The notes under the pieces are model-generated. The model was not told the DNA's origin and did not search any database. It was given only the letters and a program-made list of their open reading frames with translations. Of a stretch of 64,000 bases of DNA, positions 2,764 through 46,373 are shown piece by piece (positions within the stretch are counted from its first letter, which is position 1; each line of letters opens with the position of its first letter). The stretch is from the sequence record PZ026127.1. One strand, given 5' to 3'. The position numbers and the translations under genes are program-made. Source of the stretch: a phage.

Positions 2764-3399
2764 ATGTCTAAAATTACTTATATCATCAAAGCTTCTGAAG
2801 ACGTCCTGAATGAAAAAACTGCTTCGATCTTAGTACATATCATCAAGCATAACTTCATCACTTCAGGCGAAGTCCGTGAAGCCCTGAGTGAGCAATTTAG
2901 TGCAGCAGTGGTTAACTCTAACATCGGTGTATTGATTAAGAAAGGATTCATCGAAAAATCTGGTGACGGTTTAGTGGCTACAGGTGAAGCAATGGACCTG
3001 GTTCAAAAAGCTGCCGACCTGTTCGCTTCTGAAAATGCTCCAGAGATGTTGGAAAAACGTAAAACGCGTAGTTCACGTGGTGTTACTCCTGAAATGGTAA
3101 CACTGGCTGATGAAGTTAAAGCTTTATTAGAAGACCGTATCGAGATTCGTGAAATTGCTGAAAACCGTAGCAACCTTGAAGTTCGATTCGCTAAACGTAC
3201 CAATGGTATTCGTCAAATTGAAGTCCGTCGTGATGGAATGATGCGTATCTTCGGTTATAATATGACTGATAAAGAAAAACAAGTGTTTACTTCCTTGAAT
3301 CTTGATGTTAAGATTAAGACTGGTGGTAAGAATACTTATATCGACTTCCAAAACGTATCATCTGAAGTTATCAAAACCGTAACCAACGCAATTATCTGA
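2764..3399 (+). CDS. motA: MotA middle-transcription activator
   Basis: 211 aa (T4 MotA 211 aa); N-terminus MSKITYIIKAS.DVLNEKTA and ...SNIGVLIKKG..EKSGDGL match remembered T4 MotA; own early promoter. Confidence 0.85.
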   Translation: MSKITYIIKASEDVLNEKTASILVHIIKHNFITSGEVREALSEQFSAAVVNSNIGVLIKKGFIEKSGDGLVATGEAMDLVQKAADLFASENAPEMLEKRKTRSSRGVTPEMVTLADEVKALLEDRIEIREIAENRSNLEVRFAKRTNGIRQIEVRRDGMMRIFGYNMTDKEKQVFTSLNLDVKIKTGGKNTYIDFQNVSSEVIKTVTNAII

Positions 3400-5710: not shown

Positions 5711-6360
5711 CGTGTTCGACCTAATGTCCTCCCGGCTTGACCACACATAGACGAAAGTCTAGGAAATCCTAAATCCGGTTTGATATCATACCAGTACAAC
5801 GATATCGAGCCGGCGTAGACGTTATCCAAATTAAAAAACGGGCATGAAAACATATACGTGAATTGTGTTTTCTTCTTTGTAGGGAGAAACACTGATTCAG
5901 TACTTGATTCAAAATAGTTCCCGTTAACTCCCGCCATATATTCTACTGACGTTTTGTCAATTGGAAACCCTCCCGTGTTTTTTGCGTCTACCGTTTCCGG
6001 TAATTTACCCTCGTAAGCCACCATATCCACAAAATAATTCATGTTGGTTGGTCTAAAAGAATATATTGCTGTGAAGTCTGCGCCTGAAGAAGAATGCACT
6101 ATTCGGAGCTGCTCGATAGCCGCAATTTTAAATCTATTGTCCTGGTCTTGTCTAATCATTTCAGTATAAGAGGCATAAGTTGTCTCTTTGTAAAAGTTTA
6201 GAATATACTCGCCTTTATACCAAACCAATGCCATAAAGAACAATAATATTACGACTAGGACCCGGGAAAAAACAACTTTCCCGGAAGAAGTATCTTTAAA
6301 AATTCTATCAAGAAGTCCAAAAAGTAGGTCTGATAATGATATTCCTACTTTTGGTTCCAT
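5707..6360 (-). CDS. t: holin T
   Basis: 217 aa (T4 T 218 aa); LSDLLFGLLDRIFKD..GKV..SRV.VVILLFFMA.VWY and C-terminal SMCGQAGRTLGR match T4 holin; late promoter and RBS upstream. Confidence 0.9.
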   Translation of the reverse strand: MEPKVGISLSDLLFGLLDRIFKDTSSGKVVFSRVLVVILLFFMALVWYKGEYILNFYKETTYASYTEMIRQDQDNRFKIAAIEQLRIVHSSSGADFTAIYSFRPTNMNYFVDMVAYEGKLPETVDAKNTGGFPIDKTSVEYMAGVNGNYFESSTESVFLPTKKKTQFTYMFSCPFFNLDNVYAGSISLYWYDIKPDLGFPRLSSMCGQAGRTLGRTR

Positions 6361-19677: not shown

Positions 19678-19688
19678 GGCATTTAATG

Positions 19689-19717
19689 GTTTACAACGCC
19701 TTTAAACATGATACTAT
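19689..19717 (+). promoter_or_regulatory. early promoter (frd-upstream cluster, first)
   Basis: GTTTACAACGCCTTTAAACATGATACTAT; identical copy at 20401. Confidence 0.6.
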
Positions 19718-19746
19718 AGACCTATCAACTACATGAGGAAATAAAA

Positions 19747-20137: not shown

Positions 20138-20398
20138 ATGACTAAAGATGATTTCCTGGATGCAGTAGAAAAAGCCAGTGAGAAATTTGAAGTGATGGGT
20201 GTACGAGTTCATAAAGACCGAAATTACGGGCTCGATATCCAAACTTATTCATTATGGCTTGTAGGTGAACATAGTCTTGTAACCACCTTAGTTATGGGTG
20301 TTGATGCCCAACCTTTACTGGTTAAATTTAGAAGTATGGAAAAAGCTACCAAAGAAATGATTAAACTTGGTAAATGGCTTGATAAAATTCAAAAATAA
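20138..20398 (+). CDS. hypothetical early protein
   Basis: 86 aa from ATG; track ORF extended upstream. Confidence 0.45.
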   Translation: MTKDDFLDAVEKASEKFEVMGVRVHKDRNYGLDIQTYSLWLVGEHSLVTTLVMGVDAQPLLVKFRSMEKATKEMIKLGKWLDKIQK

Positions 20399-20400
20399 AT

Positions 20401-20429
20401 GTTTACAACGCCTTTAAACATGATACTAT
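20401..20429 (+). promoter_or_regulatory. early promoter (repeat copy)
   Basis: 41-nt identity with promoter at 19689. Confidence 0.6.
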
Positions 20430-20461
20430 AGACCTATCAACTAATGAGTGAGGAAAATAAA

Positions 20462-20689: not shown

Positions 20690-20719
20690 GTTTACACCAG
20701 GCTATGGTAGTGATACTAT
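20690..20719 (+). promoter_or_regulatory. early promoter
   Basis: GTTTACA ... TGATACTAT. Confidence 0.55.
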
Positions 20720-20744
20720 AGCCTTATCAACTAAGGAGAATAAA

Positions 20745-22433
<1,689 letters not shown>

Positions 22434-35027: not shown

Positions 35028-35289
35028 GTTAAATCGAGGAGCCGTCGAACTGTTTGATTAATGATTTGCGAATCATTATAGTTTTAAGACCCCAACAGTT
35101 TTACGGTGTACCTCTTGAATGTATTTTGTACTATCACGCGTCAGAAAAAGGTTATCTGTCTAAGTCGTGGTTGGTATGATGACGAGGTTTATGGTTATCC
35201 TGTCGTTAAATATCCGAAACCTATGTTCCCCTTGAGGGCTTGCGCAGGCAACGCCAATAAGTCCTGCATCCTAATTTAAGAGATTTAAA

Positions 35290-35451
35290 ATGGCCAAGAA
35301 AGAAGTTAAAGTAGTTGACGGTACCTCTAAACGCGCTGGTTACAAGCGTGCGTCCAACAAGCGTATCGATCAGGTAGTTGATAAGCTTCAAGCTCGTGCT
35401 CGTGCGGTATTGCGTGCAGATGCTGCTTGCTTTGGTAAGCCTCAGGCATAA
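35290..35451 (+). CDS. small basic protein (53 aa)
   Basis: ORF read by eye, Lys/Arg-rich; followed by intrinsic terminator. Confidence 0.35.
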   Translation: MAKKEVKVVDGTSKRAGYKRASNKRIDQVVDKLQARARAVLRADAACFGKPQA

Positions 35452-35454
35452 GTT

Positions 35455-35480
35455 ATGGGACTCTTCGGAGTCCCATTTTT
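35455..35480 (+). terminator. intrinsic terminator
   Basis: GGGACTC-TTCG-GAGTCCC followed by ATTTTTGTTT. Confidence 0.65.
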
Positions 35481-35502
35481 GTTTCTAAATCTTTAAAAAA
35501 TG

Positions 35503-35531
35503 GTGTACATCTCCGGTAGGCATGATACTAT
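35503..35531 (+). promoter_or_regulatory. early promoter (variant -35 GTGTAC)
   Basis: GTGTAC, 17 nt, TACTAT. Confidence 0.5.
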
Positions 35532-35562
35532 AGACATGTACTAAATAATACGAAAACAAACT
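35531..35562 (+). repeat. promoter-proximal leader repeat, copy 1
   Basis: TAGACATGTACTAAATAATACGAAAACAAACT; near-identical copy at 35974-36005. Confidence 0.7.
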
Positions 35563-35572
35563 GGAGAATAAA

Positions 35573-35941
35573 ATGAAAATCAATCTTAACTCATATATCA
35601 AATGTAAAGACCACGACGGTTACAAAGCAATCGAAACTAAAGAAATGCAATGGCACTTGTACAAAGAACAATTTGAATTTGTAGGTTGCATGACTCCGGA
35701 AGGTCCTTCTGATGACTTCTCTTGGAAAATTATGGTAACAAACTTTTTTACCGGTGATACCTACGAACTGAAAACTATCATAACCGGTAAGATTCGTTGT
35801 AAGACCTATGAAGATGAAGAAACCGGTTATTCTGAAGATGTTACATGGTATCAAAATGGTCGCACTACTGCTGATGAGTTGATTGAAAAAATGAAAGCCA
35901 AAGGTGAATTAAATTTAGATAATTGGATTAAAGTTGCATAA
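35573..35941 (+). CDS. hypothetical early protein
   Basis: 122 aa; RBS GGAGAATAAA; own early promoter. Confidence 0.5.
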   Translation: MKINLNSYIKCKDHDGYKAIETKEMQWHLYKEQFEFVGCMTPEGPSDDFSWKIMVTNFFTGDTYELKTIITGKIRCKTYEDEETGYSEDVTWYQNGRTTADELIEKMKAKGELNLDNWIKVA

Positions 35942-35945
35942 AACA

Positions 35946-35976
35946 GTTTACTTTGGTACAGGTTGTGTTATTATAG
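35946..35976 (+). promoter_or_regulatory. early promoter
   Basis: GTTTAC, 17 nt, TATTAT; flanked by inverted repeat GGTACAGG/CCTGTACC. Confidence 0.55.
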
Positions 35977-36005
35977 ACCTGTACCAAATAATACGAAAAC
36001 AAACT
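35974..36005 (+). repeat. promoter-proximal leader repeat, copy 2
   Basis: TAGACCTGTACCAAATAATACGAAAACAAACT (2 mismatches to copy 1). Confidence 0.7.
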
Positions 36006-36023
36006 AAACCAAAGGATAATAAA

Positions 36024-36389
36024 ATGAACTACATCAACTTCGAACGTAAATATGTTTCTATCGGTGCGGTTGGTTCTAACGAATACATGTGTTTATGGGA
36101 GCATAAAAACGGTTCAGTTTGCGAAATCGACCATTGGGTTTCTCCTGATTATGTTTATATGCGATTTGAAAATGGTATCACTCTTTCAATCACTAAAGAA
36201 GGTTCTTCTTTTAAAATAGCTTTAGATGATGATTTCCGTCAACGTGATTTAGGTACTCATCCTTGCTGGAACGGCGTTAATCGTAAGCTTCTGGTTAAAA
36301 CTTGGATTCGTCACATCCTGAGCAACCGAGCTAAACCTGAACACCTGGAAGCAATCTTTGATGTAGTTCTGAACGAATTCGACATCTAA
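36024..36389 (+). CDS. hypothetical early protein
   Basis: 121 aa from ATG; shares promoter-leader repeat with upstream gene. Confidence 0.5.
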   Translation: MNYINFERKYVSIGAVGSNEYMCLWEHKNGSVCEIDHWVSPDYVYMRFENGITLSITKEGSSFKIALDDDFRQRDLGTHPCWNGVNRKLLVKTWIRHILSNRAKPEHLEAIFDVVLNEFDI

Positions 36390-40260: not shown

Positions 40261-42156
40261 ATGTCCGAACAATTGAATGAGGTATTTGACGGCGCTATAG
40301 ATTTATCAGCTGTCAATTTAAACCCTAAACTTAAAGTACCGCAGATTTGGAATATAAAGGCTGAAGGTAATGAGAACCTTGTTGCACGCATGGTTTCATA
40401 TACTTCTGAAGGTGATACAATCCGCCAAGTTAAACCGGGTGACAAATACGTTCATATTATTTTAATGAGCCTATCATCTAAAGGGGCCCCGGCAGAACTC
40501 AAAGGTGGTTTAGGTAGTAACCCCATTTCCGCTATTCGTTCTATATTTGATACGGTTTATGAACAAGTTAAAAAGCTCCGTATGGATGCCGTTATGTTCC
40601 GTTTTCCTACTAAGAAAATGAAAGGTCAGGAAAAAGCTGTACAACGAGTTCTAGCCAAATTAATAGCTACTAGAGCAGGTGGGCAATTCAAGGTCCTTGA
40701 TGCCTTGTATCAATATACAGGCAAACATTCATATGTTTTTATCTATCGTAAAAATAAAAATATAGAATCAATAAACGGTATTCCTAATATTAATCCGGAA
40801 TTGTATACTAAAGTCGAATCTGAAGTCGGTGATGTGTATGTTTCAAAGAAAACAGGCGAAGATGTTACCAAATTAGAAGCTATAGCTAAGTCTATAGACG
40901 AAATAGAAAAATCACGTTCTGATAAAATGGTTATAACCAAGACTAAGGTTTCTAAACGGGCCGCTATAAATGCGTTATATTCTACCGCCGAGCCTACAGG
41001 ATTGAGTAAATTTTCGGCAGAGCACAAAAAAGCTTATGCAGATTATTCTGCTACTAGTTCCGTTCATTCTTCTGAAGATTCTAAAGAAAGCCAAATAGCT
41101 TTAGCCAGTAATAAAATATTAAAAGACGCCTCTAAAGAAATGGCAGAATATTTGGATTATATTTTTAACGGTGTTAATCCATCATTTGAAGTAGACGAGC
41201 GCAAACTTAAACTAATTGCTGATATAAAGTTTGCTTTAGAGGCATCAGATTCTTTAGATAAATCTAATAGTGTCATAGAGGCTTTAAAATCAGGTAAATC
41301 TCATGTAGACATTCTTAGACTAGTCGCTGCGGCCCTTTTAGATGATTCAGTTAAAGGTACTTGGGCTAGAGAATCTAAAATCAAGGAAGTAATAAAATCC
41401 TTAGTAGCAGTTTATACAAAATCTATCCAACCGTTGTTTAAGATATCTGATAATCCTAATTTATCCAAACCTCAAGAAGAGGCAGTCAAAAAGTATACTC
41501 GTGGCGGCTACAACCATATAAACAACTTTTTGCTAGGTAAAACAGATACCACCGATGAAATGATAAAAATGATTGGTGAGTTGGATTCTACATTTGAAAA
41601 TGGTACAAAACTTCCTAAAGGAACCATAGTGTATCGTTCTCAGATAATGCCTACCGAAATGGCTTTGAATTCTATAAAACATAAGGTGATGTATCTTCCT
41701 ATTTTTGCATCAACTTCATTGGCTCCTAATATTTTCGGTGAAATGGGTCATGCTCAATCCAACTTAGACCCTGAAGCTCTTTCTAGCGATATAGATAGTA
41801 ATCTTGAAGACACCATTAAAAGTGCGACCGGAAGTGCTAGAGATACCATTAAGCTAGGGCTAATTATTAAAGGTGCTGATAAAATTAAGGTTATTGTGCC
41901 CGGTGACTTGGCTAATTGGTCTACAGAAACCGAAGTAATTCTTCCTCGTGGGGTTATGCTTAAGATTAATAAAGTATACGGTGCTTCCAAGGGACCTATG
42001 GGTTCAATTGGTAAATATGTTTTAGTGGAATGTGAAGTTGTAGCTACCGAGCAAATCACAGAGGAAAATTCATATAGCACCGGATTCTCGTTTGGAAATT
42101 ATGATAGAATTATGTATGAAGATTCTATGGAAAAATTAGCAAATTTATTTAAATAG
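40261..42156 (+). CDS. Alt-like ADP-ribosyltransferase, paralog 1
   Basis: 631 aa; conserved Alt-type N-terminal module; C-terminal R-S-ExE ART signature (YRSQ, FASTSL, TETEVILPRG). Confidence 0.8.
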   Translation: MSEQLNEVFDGAIDLSAVNLNPKLKVPQIWNIKAEGNENLVARMVSYTSEGDTIRQVKPGDKYVHIILMSLSSKGAPAELKGGLGSNPISAIRSIFDTVYEQVKKLRMDAVMFRFPTKKMKGQEKAVQRVLAKLIATRAGGQFKVLDALYQYTGKHSYVFIYRKNKNIESINGIPNINPELYTKVESEVGDVYVSKKTGEDVTKLEAIAKSIDEIEKSRSDKMVITKTKVSKRAAINALYSTAEPTGLSKFSAEHKKAYADYSATSSVHSSEDSKESQIALASNKILKDASKEMAEYLDYIFNGVNPSFEVDERKLKLIADIKFALEASDSLDKSNSVIEALKSGKSHVDILRLVAAALLDDSVKGTWARESKIKEVIKSLVAVYTKSIQPLFKISDNPNLSKPQEEAVKKYTRGGYNHINNFLLGKTDTTDEMIKMIGELDSTFENGTKLPKGTIVYRSQIMPTEMALNSIKHKVMYLPIFASTSLAPNIFGEMGHAQSNLDPEALSSDIDSNLEDTIKSATGSARDTIKLGLIIKGADKIKVIVPGDLANWSTETEVILPRGVMLKINKVYGASKGPMGSIGKYVLVECEVVATEQITEENSYSTGFSFGNYDRIMYEDSMEKLANLFK

Positions 42157-42164
42157 GATAGATT

Positions 42165-44246
42165 ATGACCCAATTAAATGAAGTGTTCGAGTCCGAAGGT
42201 ACACTGCCTGTTGTGAACTTGAACCCAAAACTTAAAGTACCTCAGATTTGGAAGATTGGAGACGCGGAGTCTCAGTTAGTAGCACGTATGGTATCCTATG
42301 CTTCTGAAGGCGATGCTATTAAACAGGTTAAGATGGGTGATAAATATGCCCACGTTATCCTTATGAGCCTTTCAGCTAAAGGTTCGCCTGCCGAACTTAA
42401 AGGCGGCTTAGGCCCTACTCCTGTAGATGCGATTAATACTATTTTTGATGTAGTTTATGACCAAGTTAAAAAGCTTCGTATGGATGCCGTGATGTTCCGT
42501 TTTCCTACCAAGAAAATGAAAGGTCAAGGCCCTATCGTTCAACGTATTATCCAACGTTTGGTAGCACAGAAAACCGGTGGACGTTTTAAAGTGGTTCCGG
42601 CTATGTACCAATTTACCGGTAAACATACTTACATCCTGGTAGTCCGTAAACAAGCTGATATCGAAGATATCAAAGGTATGCCTGGAATTAATGCTGAATT
42701 GTATACTAAGGTAGATTCTGATGTCGGTGAAGTTTATATTTCCAAAAAAGAAGGTGTGCAGGTTACTAAAGAAACTGCTATTGCTGGCAGTATTGCTAAG
42801 GTTGAAGAACGTCGCACTGATAAAATGGTTATAACCAAGACTAAGATTTCTAGGCGCGCCATTGCAGCAAGCCAATCATTGGAATCTTATCGTAATGAAA
42901 GTGAATTGTTTAAGAAATATGAAGCTACTGCAGCGGATTTTAATAAACCGGCAACAGTTCCATTAATCCCTGAGGCTCAGGAAATGGTTACTAATAACAA
43001 TTCTCCTGCGGCTAAAAATAAGGTTGCTAATATAGTGGCTGAAGGCACTGCTGAAGAATTGCATTACGATTATAAAATGTTTCCTCTTCACGGTATAGGT
43101 GAAATCCAAGAGAAAATTAAAGAGAAAATTCTTACAGCAATAAAAAACGAACCTTTGACATCTGTTAAAGCTCTAGAAAAATATGCCTCTGCTATTAATA
43201 CCGTTTTCGAAGAATACAAAGGTGAATGGCTGGCTATCCATAACAGAACTCGTAAAGGCCAACCTGATGACCTTTGGAACGAATTGACAGAGGCCAAGTG
43301 GAAAGCAGCCAAGACTAAGTTCATTAAAAAACGTGTATATAGTTTTGCTGGTGTGGGTGGCGGTATTATGGTTGATATTACTATTGCTCGTGAGGGCTCT
43401 AAATATACCCCATCACAAAAGCGCGGAATCAGAGAATATTGTGGTTCAGGATATACAGACATAAATAATCTTCTTTTAGGACGTTATAATCCTCAGAACT
43501 ATGAGGTTATGAGCGAAAAAGATATCGAATCTGCAGTTAATAATTTGGATTCTGCTTTTGAAAACGGCGACCGTATACCAGAAGGCATCACAGTTTATCG
43601 CGCACAGAGTATGACTGCTCCTATATACGAAGCACTAGTTAAAAATAAAGTGTTCTATTTCAGAAATTTTGTATCTACTTCTTTAACTCCTATCATTTTC
43701 GGACGTTTTGGTGTTACCCACGCAGGTATTGGTCTTTTAGAACCTGAAGTTCGCAATGAATTGACAGTCGATAAAAATGAAGAAGGAATAACTATTAACC
43801 CTAATGAAATAAGAGCGTATAAAGAAAACCCTGATTACGTTAAAGTTCAAATAGGATGGGTAATTGATGGAGCCCATAAAGTTAATGTCGTATATCCAGG
43901 AAATCTCGGAATAGCAACTGAAGCCGAAGTTATTCTGCCGCGTGGATTAATGGTCAAAGTTAATAAAATAACAGATGCTTCTAATAATGATGGAACAACA
44001 TCTAGTAATACAAAACTCATCCAAGCTGAAGTTATGACAACAGATGAGCTTCAAGAATCTGTGGTATATGATGGTGACGTACTAATGGAAACCGGCGAGC
44101 TGGTCGTGTATCAAGATGATTTCGATACTTCCGAAAGCCCTGTATCTTTTGATTCATTTGTTAAATCTACACGGTTTGATGTACTGCCTCTTTTGGCTTC
44201 ATGCATAGACCTCTATGACATCCCAGAAAAATTCATCCAAGGGTAA
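42165..44246 (+). CDS. alt: Alt-like ADP-ribosyltransferase, paralog 2
   Basis: 693 aa (T4 Alt 682 aa); same N-terminal module; YRAQ, FVSTSL, TEAEVILPRG. Confidence 0.8.
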   Translation: MTQLNEVFESEGTLPVVNLNPKLKVPQIWKIGDAESQLVARMVSYASEGDAIKQVKMGDKYAHVILMSLSAKGSPAELKGGLGPTPVDAINTIFDVVYDQVKKLRMDAVMFRFPTKKMKGQGPIVQRIIQRLVAQKTGGRFKVVPAMYQFTGKHTYILVVRKQADIEDIKGMPGINAELYTKVDSDVGEVYISKKEGVQVTKETAIAGSIAKVEERRTDKMVITKTKISRRAIAASQSLESYRNESELFKKYEATAADFNKPATVPLIPEAQEMVTNNNSPAAKNKVANIVAEGTAEELHYDYKMFPLHGIGEIQEKIKEKILTAIKNEPLTSVKALEKYASAINTVFEEYKGEWLAIHNRTRKGQPDDLWNELTEAKWKAAKTKFIKKRVYSFAGVGGGIMVDITIAREGSKYTPSQKRGIREYCGSGYTDINNLLLGRYNPQNYEVMSEKDIESAVNNLDSAFENGDRIPEGITVYRAQSMTAPIYEALVKNKVFYFRNFVSTSLTPIIFGRFGVTHAGIGLLEPEVRNELTVDKNEEGITINPNEIRAYKENPDYVKVQIGWVIDGAHKVNVVYPGNLGIATEAEVILPRGLMVKVNKITDASNNDGTTSSNTKLIQAEVMTTDELQESVVYDGDVLMETGELVVYQDDFDTSESPVSFDSFVKSTRFDVLPLLASCIDLYDIPEKFIQG

Positions 44247-44249
44247 ATA

Positions 44250-46373
44250 ATGGAAAATTTAAACGAGGTTTTTGATAGTGATTCCGCTAAAAACTATCCA
44301 GTAACAAATCTTAAACCGGGTTCCGGTATTCCACAGATTTTCTCTATCCAAGCACCAGGTAACGATAACCTGGTTGCTCGCATGGTATCTTATGCGTCTG
44401 AAGGCGACGCTATTAAGATGGTTAAGGCGGGCGATAAGTACGTCCATGTTATCTTAATGAGTTTATCTGCTAAAGGCGCTCCGGCAGAACTCAAGGGTGG
44501 GTTGGGTACCGATCCACTCGGTACACTGAACACCATTTTCGATACCATATACGAACAAATAAACAAACTTAAAATGGACGCGGTTTTATTCCGTTTCCCT
44601 ACTAAGAAAATGAAAGGTAAAGGCCCTACCGTTCAGCGCGTATTAGCTCGTTTGGCTATGGCCCGTACCGGTGGTAAGTTTAAAGTTGTTGACGACATGT
44701 TCCAATTCAGCGGAAAACATACCTACGTTCTTTTAGTACGTCGTGGTGCTAATATTGAAGATATCAAGGGTATGCCTGAAATTAATGCCGATCTTTATAC
44801 TAAAGTTGAGTCTAAAGTTGGCGAAGTGTATGTTTCTAAGAAAACCGGCCAGGCCGTAAGTAAGGTCGAAGCAGTAGCGGCATCTATTGCACAAGTTGAA
44901 GAGAAACGTACTGATAAGGCTGTCATTACCCGTACTAAGATTTCCCGTCGTATGGCAGCAGCCGCACAGTATTCTACTGCCGAGCCTGAAACTTTGTCCC
45001 CTAAAGAATTGCAGGTTTATAACGAGTTTGAAGCTTCTGTACCGGTTCACACGGCTGAAGGCCCTGAGAATGAAGGTATTGAACAGATTAGTCAGAACTT
45101 TAAAAAAGGTGCTATTACTAAAATGCGCCAGGCTTCTCAGTTTAAATCTAAGAGCGAGGACCTTGCCAACTTTAGATACACTATTGCTCTCACACACGCT
45201 TTAATGACTGATAGTAAATTTAAACTAAATTATGCTAATAGAGATAAACAAGGGTTTGAAATTTACTCTAATAATATGGCATTTTTTAATACAGAAGTCG
45301 ATAGACTTTTAAGTGGCCTTTCGCAAATCAATACAACCAATAGTCTGGATATTATTAAGAAAATTGTTAATAACCTGAGTACCCGTTTTAAGGGTTCCCC
45401 TTCAGAGAAAGCATCTAGAATTGCTTTCGCTATGGAAGCCGTTTATAAACTGGTTAACGATTCTATTAGTGATGCATATGCTTATTCAGGCGAGCTCATT
45501 AAACCTAAGGACCTAACCAAAGACGAAAGCAATGCTATTATTGAATATTGCGCGGCTGAATATGCTCCTATGAACTTATTCCTTTTAGGTAAACCTGAAT
45601 CCGAAAACAATACAACGGCTATTAAATTGATTAAGGATTTAGACTCGGCATTTACTAAGGGTATTAAACTTCCTAAGGGTACTATTTTGTATCGTGGTCA
45701 GGATTTGCCATACAAAATTCTGCGCCATAATATCGATAACAAAACATTTTACTTTAAGAACTTTGTGTCAGCCTCACTAAAACCTAACATCTTTGGTGAA
45801 TTTGGTAAAAATTATATGGCCCTCGACAACCAAGCCGTTTTTGTTGGCGGTGAAGGTTCTTTATCCTCCGCTGATGAGTTGTTTAAATTGGCTAGTGGTA
45901 GTTCGTCTGATGTAGGTGAAGTCGATGACGAAGAGGTAGAATGGGAAGAAGACGAGTTTGGTAATCCAATTGCACCTGAAGGTCCTGCAGATAGAATTGC
46001 TGAAATTGGTATGGTTATTCGAGGTGCTGAAGCAGTTAAAGTTATCGCTCCTGGTGACCTTACAGAATATGCCGAAGAAGCAGAAATTATCCTTCCGCGT
46101 GGATTATTGTTGAAGGTTGATAAAGTAGCGGCTTTTGCCATGAATGATAGAGTATCTCACAAATACCTTATGGAAGCTACCGTAACACCTCCTTCAGAGC
46201 TCAGCGAATCTGTTTACGATGGTGACCATTTGATGGAAACTGGTGAAGTTCGCCTGATGGATGGGTTCAGTCAATTCTTGGTTAATGAATCTGTTTCTGA
46301 AAGCAACGAGGCTATGGAAATCCTTGCAGCGTCTTTGGATATCTCTTCTTTATCAAATAAATTCAAAATGTAG
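44250..46373 (+). CDS. Alt-like ADP-ribosyltransferase, paralog 3
   Basis: 707 aa; same N-terminal module; YRGQ, FVSASL, EEAEIILPRG. Confidence 0.8.
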   Translation: MENLNEVFDSDSAKNYPVTNLKPGSGIPQIFSIQAPGNDNLVARMVSYASEGDAIKMVKAGDKYVHVILMSLSAKGAPAELKGGLGTDPLGTLNTIFDTIYEQINKLKMDAVLFRFPTKKMKGKGPTVQRVLARLAMARTGGKFKVVDDMFQFSGKHTYVLLVRRGANIEDIKGMPEINADLYTKVESKVGEVYVSKKTGQAVSKVEAVAASIAQVEEKRTDKAVITRTKISRRMAAAAQYSTAEPETLSPKELQVYNEFEASVPVHTAEGPENEGIEQISQNFKKGAITKMRQASQFKSKSEDLANFRYTIALTHALMTDSKFKLNYANRDKQGFEIYSNNMAFFNTEVDRLLSGLSQINTTNSLDIIKKIVNNLSTRFKGSPSEKASRIAFAMEAVYKLVNDSISDAYAYSGELIKPKDLTKDESNAIIEYCAAEYAPMNLFLLGKPESENNTTAIKLIKDLDSAFTKGIKLPKGTILYRGQDLPYKILRHNIDNKTFYFKNFVSASLKPNIFGEFGKNYMALDNQAVFVGGEGSLSSADELFKLASGSSSDVGEVDDEEVEWEEDEFGNPIAPEGPADRIAEIGMVIRGAEAVKVIAPGDLTEYAEEAEIILPRGLLLKVDKVAAFAMNDRVSHKYLMEATVTPPSELSESVYDGDHLMETGEVRLMDGFSQFLVNESVSESNEAMEILAASLDISSLSNKFKM

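Follow-up and report, generated by a model that had tools for sequence, protein, structure and literature searches.

Upstream of the DNA ligase gene 30 of T4, Truncaite et al. reportedly described, in 2006, early promoters and RegB sites, two of each, together with a stem-loop conserved in 16 phages. Promoter-early stem-loop cassettes, or PeSLs, are a second relevant system, and they combine an AT-rich tract, a sigma-70 promoter (of the form TTTACW-N17-TAYWAT in T-even phages), a stable stem-loop that lies upstream of the promoter boxes or, often, between or over them, a Shine-Dalgarno sequence (SD) and an ATG (PMC2839356; PMC4122927). PeSLs recur along the genome, with clusters in variable (hyperplastic) regions. 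They were studied in RB49 and phi1 (Arbiol et al., 2010, PMC2839356), as well as in T4/PST and KVP40/nt-1 (Comeau et al., 2014, PMC4122927). PeSLs exhibit both promoter and terminator activity, recombination between flanking elements yields mini-circles, and the crossovers that were mapped occurred between the -10 box and the SD or ATG (PMC2839356; PMC4122927). The text of these two papers does not treat the 30.8/30.7 locus or the Dhakaviruses, and JS98 is named there for the g43 region only.

Early mRNAs of T4 are also targets of the RegB/S1 endoribonuclease. Its optimum, GGAGAAUAAAA, corresponds to the 11-nt pattern GGAGRAYARAA, in which GGA is invariant, G is preferred at position 4 and the tail is A-rich (PMC1702504). 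A GGAU target is tolerated, albeit weaker than GGAG (PMC1702504), and can be cleaved given a strict A-rich tail (Durand et al., 2006, PMC1702504). The SD of T4 30.7 was itself used as a RegB substrate in experiments, and cleavage is known for this T4 orthologue.

The DNA analyzed here is a 64-kb stretch of phage sequence (record PZ026127.1), called the window below. It belongs to a Dhakavirus, with 99.3% identity to Shigella phage PSD9 over 4 kb. In the 30.x region, whose gene content differs between relatives, a repeat precedes the orthologues of T4 genes 30.8 and 30.7 (Table 1). Taken as a whole, the locus is quite likely made of tandem early-promoter modules with a recombined leader specific to Dhakaviruses, which offer portable homology and carry a probable RegB site.

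Table 1. Coordinates of the genes, putative signals and repeat copies at the 30.8/30.7 locus of the window.
Feature	Position	Strand	Description
Gene 30.9	35290..35451	+	53 aa, upstream neighbor; ORF list; gp30.9 homologue annotated in Bp7, QL01 and VR20
Intrinsic terminator	35455..35486	+	9-bp GC-rich hairpin (35455-35476) and T-run; terminator scan; forms in RNA fold
Early promoter P30.8	35503..35531	+	-35 GTGTAC 35503-35508, 17-nt spacer, TG 35523-35524, -10 TACTAT 35526-35531; predicted start ~35538
Repeat copy 1	35523..35562	+	40 nt: -10 region, start region, A/C-rich leader; 20-mer AAATAATACGAAAACAAACT at 35543-35562
SD/start block of 30.8, GGAGAATAAAATGAA	35563..35577	+	GGAG 35563, ATG 35573; first 11 nt are the RegB/S1 optimum GGAGAAUAAAA (Durand et al., 2006, PMC1702504)
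Gene 30.8	35573..35941	+	122 aa, PF06019; ORF list; cassette swapped or deleted between modules
Early promoter P30.7	35946..35974	+	-35 GTTTAC 35946-35951, 17-nt spacer, TG 35966-35967, -10 TATTAT 35969-35974; predicted start ~35981
Inverted repeat TTTGGTACAGGT (35952-35963) / ACCTGTACCAAA (35977-35988)	35952..35988		Perfect 12 bp, encloses the P30.7 -10; putative stem-loop of the second module
Repeat copy 2	35966..36005	+	40 nt; 20-mer at 35986-36005
8 extra bases, AAACCAAA	36006..36013	+	Break the copy-2 module relative to Bp7, QL01 and IME341 (alignments)
SD/start block of 30.7, GGATAATAAAATGAA	36014..36028	+	GGAT 36014, ATG 36024; GGAU in place of GGAG
Gene 30.7	36024..36389	+	121 aa, PF06919; ORF list

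The near-exact repeat that a preliminary description had reported upstream of both genes is real: the 32-mers at 35531-35562 and 35974-36005 of the + strand agree at 30 positions, and a repeat search of the window lengthens the pair to 40 nt, 36 of which are identical. A search for the 20-mer elsewhere, as had been proposed, returned exactly the two known sites in the 64-kb window, even when as many as 3 mismatches were tolerated (0.02 expected from shuffles). A second common block follows the first one, the two SD/start blocks being identical at 14 of 15 positions. In copy 2, the 8-nt insert sits between these blocks and places the SD 8 nt farther away. A divergent patch begins on its left side at this insert, of which phage VR5 has a shorter variant. 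In Bp7 and QL01, the repeat is unbroken and extends over 55 nt, from the -10 box into the start codon. The first ~180 nt of 30.7 form an allele of their own, with 41-55 identical positions per 61-nt bin against every other phage sampled; among the phages binned, it was matched by PSD9 only.

What is duplicated is a "-10 to leader" module rather than a whole promoter. The two promoters are 29/31 identical from the -10 box into the leader, whereas their -35/spacer halves share 13 of 30 positions and are unrelated past the promoter consensus, which rules out duplication of the entire promoter. The repetition of the -10 region noted earlier holds for this segment, but the hexamers themselves are unequal (TACTAT versus TATTAT). 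The two downstream proteins had been described as dissimilar and this was confirmed: BLASTP aligned nothing between gp30.8 and gp30.7, which belong to separate Pfam families, and homology between them was rejected on this basis.

Both copies are located within T4-type early promoters of the pattern GTKTAC-N17-TGn-TAYTAT. P30.8 and P30.7 fit the early-promoter family of the window, GTTTAC-N17-TGnTAYTAT-AGACCT, which counts about 13 modules. P30.7 also reads as TTTACT-16-TATTAT with TG and is kept in T4, Mosigvirus and Gaprivervirus. AT-rich tracts precede both promoters, TCTAAATCTTTAAAAAAT for P30.8 and GCATAAAACA for P30.7. Equivalent -35, -10, ribosome-binding site and stem-loops are annotated in the GenBank entry of TuIa (AJ621579), apparently with the labels of the -35 and the -10 exchanged. 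When transcription starts are placed 7 nt after the -10 box, about 25 nt of the common 32-mer should be transcribed. We infer the use of these promoters and their start sites from T4 and from the sequence; P30.8 and P30.7 would independently drive immediate-early expression of 30.8 and 30.7, respectively. When the 13 early promoters are compared, no pair stands out more than this one 3' of the -10 box (29/31); it is identical at all 20 positions of the 20-mer zone, the next best pair reaching 15/20. On the contrary, its -35/spacer identity (13/30) is ordinary among the 13.

Comparison with relatives revealed a mosaic whose boundaries coincide with the modules. In Dhakaviruses, one of two 30.8 alleles, ~50% identical to each other, lies between ~98%-identical modules, and alleles of 110 and 122 aa are both found in this genus between the same modules. 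Compared to Bp7 and QL01, the window exhibits 97-100% identity up to position 35567, ~50% over the 30.8 coding sequence and 95% again at copy 2. The reverse pattern is observed with VR20, and the 30.8 of the window is 92-98% identical to the VR20/IME341 allele. The homology breakpoints of the swapped alleles thus fall at the two modules.

Gene 30.8 is missing in JM10, TuIa, G2285 and Nispero, and several Mosigviruses without it have their junctions inside the shared blocks, at the -10 box in JM10 and at the SD/ATG in TuIa and G2285. In JM10, the upstream half of a Mosigvirus P30.8 is joined to a P30.7 leader of the Dhakavirus type at GTGTTAY / TATAGACYTGTACCA, and in TuIa and G2285 the P30.8 leader is fused to the 30.7 coding sequence inside GGAGAATAAAATGAA. 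The suggestion that the repeat is a footprint of promoter-mediated cassette shuffling is well supported by this allele swap bounded by the modules and by these deletion junctions. The direct repeats of 40-55 nt, together with shorter shared blocks in other genera, would serve as portable homology, and recombination at the modules would replace or delete the 30.8 ORF while leaving the expression signals undisturbed.

The predicted deletion of 30.8 was found in none of the Dhakaviruses among the matches listed (40 of 329), despite flanking direct repeats of 55 nt. Likewise, a synthetic deletion junction compared with the GenBank phage collection gave no single-piece match among the matches listed. 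Either the repeat is poorly recombinogenic in Dhakaviruses or 30.8 is under selection. A functionally constrained shared leader would likewise result in Dhakaviruses devoid of the deletion.

Such a constraint is part of a broader reading, which we regard as unlikely, according to which the Dhakavirus leader of 40-55 nt goes beyond a scar of recombination, selection or gene conversion keeps it identical because gp30.8 and gp30.7 have to be produced and shut off together, and the P30.7 palindrome has a dual use. If so, an S1-loading leader associated with a RegB site would confer identical translation and decay kinetics to both mRNAs. The palindrome would then act as a promoter at the DNA level and, in read-through RNA, as a hairpin for processing or attenuation. 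Co-regulation of this kind would explain why 30.8 is retained in the Dhakaviruses examined despite the flanking direct repeats.

As a separate possibility, the shared leader of 20-25 nt, GUACCAAAUAAUACGAAAACAAACU, could be a specific post-transcriptional operator that co-regulates gp30.8 and gp30.7 and whose identity is kept by selection. It would be recognized by a translational repressor of the RegA type or some other RNA-binding protein, or else by an sRNA or RNase. The identity of all 20 positions in a part of the leader outside the promoter consensus speaks for such an operator, as does the presence of both copies and of 30.8 in every Dhakavirus among the matches listed, despite the direct repeats. 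In addition, the primary-transcript folds, whose minimum free energies are 0 and -0.9 kcal/mol, leave the leader single-stranded and accessible. However, a search of IMG/VR with a 19-mer retrieved just these two sites, in Dhakaviruses only, which argues against a regulon. A genome-wide motif was thus rejected, the search of the window (up to 3 mismatches) and that of IMG/VR both leading to two sites in a single genus. The 30.8 and 30.7 leaders of T4, Mosigvirus, Gaprivervirus, Roskildevirus and Jiaodavirus differ in sequence and length, contrary to what a conserved site would show, and in the window itself the distance between the leader and the SD varies by 8 nt. An Rfam scan (by E-value) of 35200-36300 returned a chance miRNA match only and no family for the leader; given folds close to 0 kcal/mol, a structured RNA element was also rejected. 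Finally, conservation among Dhakaviruses is as high in the flanking coding DNA as it is in the leader. Identity of the 20-mer thus needs no additional selection, and conservation cannot separate selection on it from recent common ancestry. RegA operators of T4 resemble this leader as AU-rich, unstructured stretches around the start codons of early mRNAs. The consensus obtained for RegA by SELEX reads AAAAUUGUUAUGUAA, to which nothing evident in the 20-mer corresponds. Altogether, we consider an operator in the leader quite improbable.

The idea of a common post-transcriptional or processing site, put forward in the preliminary description, thus finds no support in the 20-mer, which is unstructured, restricted to two sites of one genus and without Rfam family. 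It survives in spirit for the adjacent and widely used SD block GGAGAAUAAAA, the RegB optimum, but not for the repeat that had been flagged. The candidate of copy 1, GGAGAATAAAA (35563-35573), is an exact optimum, and that of copy 2, GGATAATAAAA, has U at position 4. Both lie in a single-stranded context, as indicated by the leader folds, at the SD of genes driven by early promoters. The GGAGAATAAAATGAA block has three near-copies in the window, one of them at 20735. No regB was found in the 64-kb window; RegB homologues (58% identity) are encoded by two closely related Dhakaviruses, IME540 and fDHCT2, with which the window shares 95-98% identity across the 4-kb region around the locus. Hence a RegB/S1 processing site probably adjoins the repeat on its 3' side rather than lying inside it, and the endoribonuclease would shut off both early mRNAs there.

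Each module also includes a stem-loop, namely the terminator hairpin before P30.8 and the inverted repeat of 12 bp around the -10 box of P30.7. Having a promoter and a stem-loop each, the modules therefore fit the published PeSL cassettes. The terminator after 30.9 is kept in Bp7, QL01, VR20 and T4, and its hairpin provides the first module with its stem-loop. In read-through RNA, the P30.7 hairpin reaches -19 kcal/mol (z = -3.5, compared to -4.3 for the T4 equivalent), but it is no canonical terminator because it is devoid of a U-run.

The right arm of this inverted repeat falls within copy 2, and the hairpin could be what chiefly matters about the repeat: ACCTGTACCAAA would belong to a DNA or RNA palindrome with a role as operator, attenuator or processing signal, of which the P30.8 copy would be a degenerate second instance. 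We judge this very improbable. In its favor, perfect pairing over 12 bp around the -10 box of P30.7 is kept in four genera, Cronus and Roth34 have other inverted repeats of 8-9 bp in its place, and 7 of the 13 early promoters have inverted repeats whose arms, 6 bp or longer, flank the -10 box (1.2 expected). Stem-loops over promoter boxes are, however, already part of the PeSL description. P30.8 pairs by a 6-bp arm only (GTACAT/ATGTAC), on the self-complementary GTAC, with a left arm displaced onto the -35 box, and this pairing is disrupted in IME341. Moreover, a palindrome leaves the identical downstream 20-mer unexplained. An apparent compensatory change for a P30.8 hairpin (GACATG with GTACAT versus GACCTG with ACAGG) was discounted, since GTAC is self-complementary, the left arm is displaced and IME341 is unpaired.

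The copies are best regarded as the downstream halves (-10 box, start region, A/C-rich leader, SD and ATG) of tandem T4-type sigma-70 early promoters, the near-identity of which would be the product of a recombination specific to the genus Dhakavirus. Within a genome, the two leaders match at 40 of 41 positions in Bp7; the corresponding values are 35/41 for Mosigvirus, 31/41 for Gaprivervirus and 21/37 for T4. The Dhakavirus P30.8 leader is closer to the P30.7 leader of Gaprivervirus (34-35/41) than to its P30.8 leader (29-30/41), and is equally related to those of Mosigvirus (33-34/41 and 32-33/41, respectively). The "-10 to ATG" segment of P30.7 may thus have been copied onto P30.8 through a crossover in the conserved TAYTATAGAC core, giving rise to a chimeric P30.8; a few short alignments suggest this direction of conversion. 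That both genes instead acquired the same optimal leader independently is hardly credible: strong constraints do act on early promoters of the T4 type and on SD blocks of the RegB type, and both recur, with a consensus AGACCTATCAACTAA after many -10 boxes and GGAGAATAAAATGAA also at 20735, but in the 20-mer zone none of the other 11 early promoters exceeds 15/20, the shared 20-mer differs from the consensus leader, and the chimeric P30.8 and the chimeric junctions of JM10, TuIa and G2285 show recombination between modules directly.

The locus represents, locally, a class of promoter cassettes that is already known; it reveals neither a new regulatory signal nor a new kind of element. It provides a clean natural case of small accessory-gene exchange in T4-like phages, in which conserved expression modules would offer portable homology for replacing or deleting an ORF while its neighbors are still expressed correctly. 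Sequenced phages show three outcomes: an allele swap and two kinds of deletion, with the crossover either at the -10 box or at the SD/ATG. The published picture of promoter cassettes is thereby extended to Dhakaviruses and to an experimentally studied region of T4. For annotation, when unrelated phage genes have identical leaders, recombination linkers are a more probable explanation than regulon motifs.

Compared to PeSLs, the locus presents the same composite parts, with promoter boxes, AT-rich tract, stem-loop and SD/ATG, repeated in tandem in a variable region around a small ORF of unknown function. Close relatives similarly show replacements and deletions with crossovers inside the element, between the -10 box and the SD/ATG. 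Unlike PeSLs, the modules share their downstream half only, their -35/spacer halves being unrelated, and identity runs through a non-consensus leader of 20 nt in one genus only. The SD block of copy 1 resembles known RegB/S1 sites, as it is the stated T4 optimum GGAGAAUAAAA, single-stranded and located at the SD of an early mRNA. It differs from them in that the candidate, recognized from its sequence and from T4, lies 3' of the repeat and in that copy 2 has GGAU. The region upstream of the T4 ligase gene 30 is the orthologous locus and harbors early-promoter-like sequences before 30.8 and 30.7, a terminator after 30.9, a GGTACAGG/CCTGTACC hairpin at P30.7 and GGAG SD sequences. However, the two leaders of T4 are unrelated (21/37) save for GGAGAATAAA, whereas the long shared leader is specific to Dhakaviruses.

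The 4-kb stretch around the repeat shares 99.3% identity with Shigella phage PSD9 and 94-98% with other Dhakaviruses such as QL01, WG01, Bp7, IME540, and IME341; these T-even phages belong to the Tevenvirinae. Its gene order is that of T4, i.e., cd, 31.2, 31.1, 31, rIII, 30.9, 30.8, 30.7, ... 30.1, and DNA ligase (gene 30). Gene content beside 30.7 varies among relatives: QL01 carries an additional 95-aa ORF (2887-3174 of comparison record L003), HX01 a 204-aa "30.6A" ORF also present in TuIa (1949-2563 of the HX01 record L027), and Roth34 an unrelated 162-aa ORF upstream of 30.7 (183-671 of record L029), which makes the entire 30.x segment a variable region. Right behind the DNA ligase lie three paralogous ORFs in tandem (631, 693, and 707 aa; 40261-46373, plus strand). 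Each has an ADP-ribosyltransferase domain (PF03496), and the three are the source of the direct-repeat families D1, D2, and D7; T4 has one alt gene at this place.

The preliminary description reported a near-exact repeat of the -10 region and leader in front of two dissimilar proteins, and both observations stand. The products of 30.8 and 30.7 fall in different Pfam families (see table), and protein comparison detected no similarity between them. On exact alignment the repeat becomes longer rather than shorter: 30/32 positions match between 35531-35562 and 35974-36005, the two strings first noticed, and a repeat search of the window extends this to a 40-nt direct repeat (35523-35562 and 35966-36005, 36/40; family D15). 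Both copies continue into a second common block, separated from the first by eight extra bases (36006-36013) in copy 2, ahead of 30.7; in Bp7 and QL01, the repeat begins at the -10 and reaches into the start codon without a break (55 nt). The 20-mer AAATAATACGAAAACAAACT, the leader part common to both copies, occurs in the 64 kb at just these two sites with up to three mismatches allowed (0.02 expected).

Features of the 30.8/30.7 locus and early promoters with inverted repeats
Feature	Position	Strand	Remarks
Classical intrinsic terminator	35455-35476 + T-run	+	Predicted; precedes P30.8
P30.8	-35 GTGTAC 35503-35508; TG 35523-35524; -10 TACTAT 35526-35531	+	Predicted T4-type sigma-70 early promoter; 17-nt spacer
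Second common block, copy 1	35563-35577	+	GGAGAATAAAATGAA
gp30.8 ORF	35573-35941	+	PF06019
P30.7	-35 GTTTAC 35946-35951; TG 35966-35967; -10 TATTAT 35969-35974	+	Predicted T4-type sigma-70 early promoter; 17-nt spacer
Perfect 12-bp inverted repeat	35952-35988		TTTGGTACAGGT-N13-ACCTGTACCAAA; -10 of P30.7 inside its loop
Second common block, copy 2	36014-36028	+	GGATAATAAAATGAA
gp30.7 ORF	36024-36389	+	PF06919
Early promoters with inverted repeat	-10 ends 173, 5393, 20719, 27956, 29248, 35531, 35974		

About 13 early promoters of the P30.8/P30.7 type are found in the window (families D3/D4/D8), with the consensus GTTTAC...ATGATACTATAGACCTATCAACTAA, so that part of the repeat (TATAGACCT...) belongs to the consensus of these promoters in general. 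When all 78 pairs of promoters are compared, 30.8/30.7 stands out clearly downstream of the -10 (29/31) and is identical in the 20-mer zone (20/20, the next best pair reaching 15/20), but is ordinary in the -35/spacer half (13/30). The duplicated part is thus the half running from the -10 to the leader (to the ATG), and a duplication of the complete promoter is ruled out by the low -35/spacer match. Upstream of the -10, P30.8 resembles the general promoter family (22/30 with the promoter at 2725). With starts assumed about 7 nt past the -10, near 35538 and 35981, some 25 nt of the common 32-mer would be transcribed. The GenBank entry of TuIa (AJ621579) annotates a -35, a -10, and a ribosome-binding site at the equivalent promoter; in AJ621579.1, the labels "minus_10_signal" and "minus_35_signal" are apparently swapped (features 78-86 and 101-106), 78-83 reading GTTTAC and 101-106 TACTAT. 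Elsewhere in the window, the early promoters at 2689-2740, 19681-19732, and 20393-20444, up to 17.7 kb apart, are near-identical in -35, spacer, and -10 (D3; 22-26/30 in the spacer half), and those at 19717, 20429, and 20719, in tandem at distances of 712 and 290 nt, may be another promoter-cassette cluster.

The shared leader had also been proposed to hold a common post-transcriptional or processing site, an idea that is not supported for the 20-mer and survives, as a prediction, for the adjoining RegB Shine-Dalgarno (SD) block. A 19-mer of the shared leader was found in just six IMG/VR genomes, all Dhakaviruses. They have it solely in front of 30.8 and 30.7, in two copies each, or in a single one if copy 1 has a point change. 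About 45 GenBank phage records contain the 52-nt module at 95% identity or more, usually at two sites each. In T4, Mosigvirus, Gaprivervirus, Roskildevirus (Cronus), and Jiaodavirus, the part of the orthologous leaders that lies between the conserved GTACC and GGAG varies in both sequence and length and is no more than A/C-rich. The 20-mer therefore has neither a regulon nor deep conservation, evidence against a regulatory motif, and a specific operator within it is improbable given its confinement to two sites in one genus and the differing leaders of other genera. RegB with S1 targets the 11-nt GGAGRAYARAA, GGAGAAUAAAA being the T4 optimum and GGAU being tolerated if a strict A-rich tail follows (Durand et al., 2006; PMC1702504). 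Copy 1 is exactly GGAGAAUAAAA (35563-35573) and copy 2 is GGAUAAUAAAA (36014-36024). The 30.7 SD variant AAACCAAAGGAT, with GGAU for GGAG, removes the canonical RegB GGAG from the 30.7 mRNA and is partly common to VR5. The RegB-optimal initiation block GGAGAATAAAATGAA recurs, as a third exact copy, at 20735-20749, behind the early promoter whose -10 ends at 20719; RegB homologues are found in the closely related Dhakaviruses IME540 and fDHCT2, and the SD of T4 30.7 mRNA serves experimentally as a RegB substrate. A post-transcriptional site very probably exists, as the widely used RegB SD block adjoining the repeat and not as the 20-mer.

From their predicted starts, the primary-transcript leaders are wholly unstructured (minimum free energies -0.9 and 0 kcal/mol), and an Rfam scan of the locus region matched no family. 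Both modules carry a stem-loop, the terminator ahead of P30.8 and the inverted repeat at P30.7. The inverted repeat at P30.7 is not a canonical terminator because no U-run follows it; it is conserved in T4 (about 5880-5915 of record L005, minus strand), Mosigvirus, and Gaprivervirus, and P30.8, too, carries its right arm as an orphan. The equivalent position is occupied in Cronus by a different inverted repeat (AGGGTTAT/ATAACCCT, upstream of 1167 in record L028) and in Roth34 by yet another (TTGGGTGGT/ACCACCCAA, upstream of 751 in record L029). Perfect inverted repeats of at least 6 bp, with arms in the -35/spacer and just past the -10, occur at 7/13 early promoters of the window, against 1.2 expected from mononucleotide shuffles (P ~0.0005); such repeats have apparently not been quantified previously for Dhakaviruses. 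A hairpin-centred function of the repeat is very unlikely.

Convergence of the two leaders is hardly credible. Promoter-mediated cassette shuffling, raised in the preliminary description, is well supported by an allele swap between the modules and by 30.8 deletions with junctions in the common blocks, whose breakpoints are directly observed. Compared with Bp7 and QL01, the window is 97-100% identical up to 35567, about 50% over the 30.8 CDS, and 95% again at copy 2; the pattern is inverse with Gaprivervirus VR20 (30.8 CDS about 93%, promoter/leader about 50%). Between the same pair of modules, Dhakaviruses carry one of two 30.8 alleles, of 110 aa (T4-like) or 122 aa (Gaprivervirus/Mosigvirus-like). 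The first ~180 nt of 30.7 form a further divergent patch (36006-36200), bounded on the left by the end of the 20-mer; among the phages binned, only PSD9 matches this 5' allele and the SD variant. PSD2002, outside that set, agrees with the window at 99.1% of positions across the 4 kb.

From the -10 onward, P30.8 is P30.7-like. Within one genome, the P30.8 and P30.7 leaders match at 40/41 positions in Bp7, 35/41 in Mosigvirus, 31/41 in Gaprivervirus, and 21/37 in T4. The Dhakavirus P30.8 leader matches the Gaprivervirus P30.7 leader at 34-35/41 and the Gaprivervirus P30.8 leader at 29-30/41, and the two Mosigvirus leaders about equally. These data point to a chimeric P30.8, onto which a P30.7 segment would have been copied by crossover in the TAYTATAGAC core; from this chimera, the leader identities, and the orphan palindrome arm, we infer copying from P30.7 to P30.8.

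Mosigvirus JM10 has a single promoter, with the upstream half of Mosigvirus P30.8 (as in HX01), and from GTGTTAT/TATAGACCTGTACCA on it matches the Dhakavirus P30.7 leader and the 5' part of 30.7 exactly. TuIa and G2285 keep the complete P30.8 promoter and its own leader, joined to the 30.7 CDS within GGAGAATAAAATGAA; single-piece matches suggest that five AV-series phages, SQ17, and PTE-Eco05 share this arrangement. Jiaodavirus Nispero is without 30.8. In a synthetic-junction search of GenBank phages, the predicted 30.8 deletion was found in no Dhakavirus among the matches listed (40 of 329), where all Dhakavirus matches were two-piece and spanned ~564 or ~601-618 nt.

Overall, a mechanism combining independent early promoters, non-allelic exchange, repeats as recombination linkers, and RegB shut-off is likely. 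P30.8 and P30.7 would be independent immediate-early promoters, whose unstructured, A/C-rich leaders, together with initiation regions of the form GGAG(U)AAUAAAAUG, would give strong translation and then RegB-mediated shut-off. Non-allelic exchange between the two modules would have produced the near-identity of the Dhakavirus leaders, and the repeats would thereafter serve as linkers for homologous recombination that exchanges or eliminates the 30.8 ORF.

Promoter-early stem-loops (PeSLs) were described in RB49/phi1 (Arbiol et al., 2010; PMC2839356), as well as in T4/PST and KVP40/nt-1 (Comeau et al., 2014; PMC4122927). They comprise an AT-rich tract, an early promoter, a stem-loop located upstream of, between or overlapping the promoter boxes, an SD, and an ATG, and they cluster in hyperplastic regions, flanking ORFs that vary between close relatives (PMC2839356; PMC4122927). 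Genes 30.7 and 30.8 are absent from the text of both papers, where JS98 appears only for the g43 region. All sequence-level defining features of PeSLs are found at 30.8/30.7, and the inverted repeats at 7/13 promoters agree with stem-loops overlapping the promoter boxes. The T4 30.8/30.7 locus was reportedly the subject of work by Truncaite and colleagues in 2006. It too has the terminator, both promoters, and the hairpin (GGTACAGG/CCTGTACC), and its SDs are GGAG, but its two leaders are unrelated (21/37). The repeat is real, and this already described type of cassette explains 30.8/30.7 well, as a further example.
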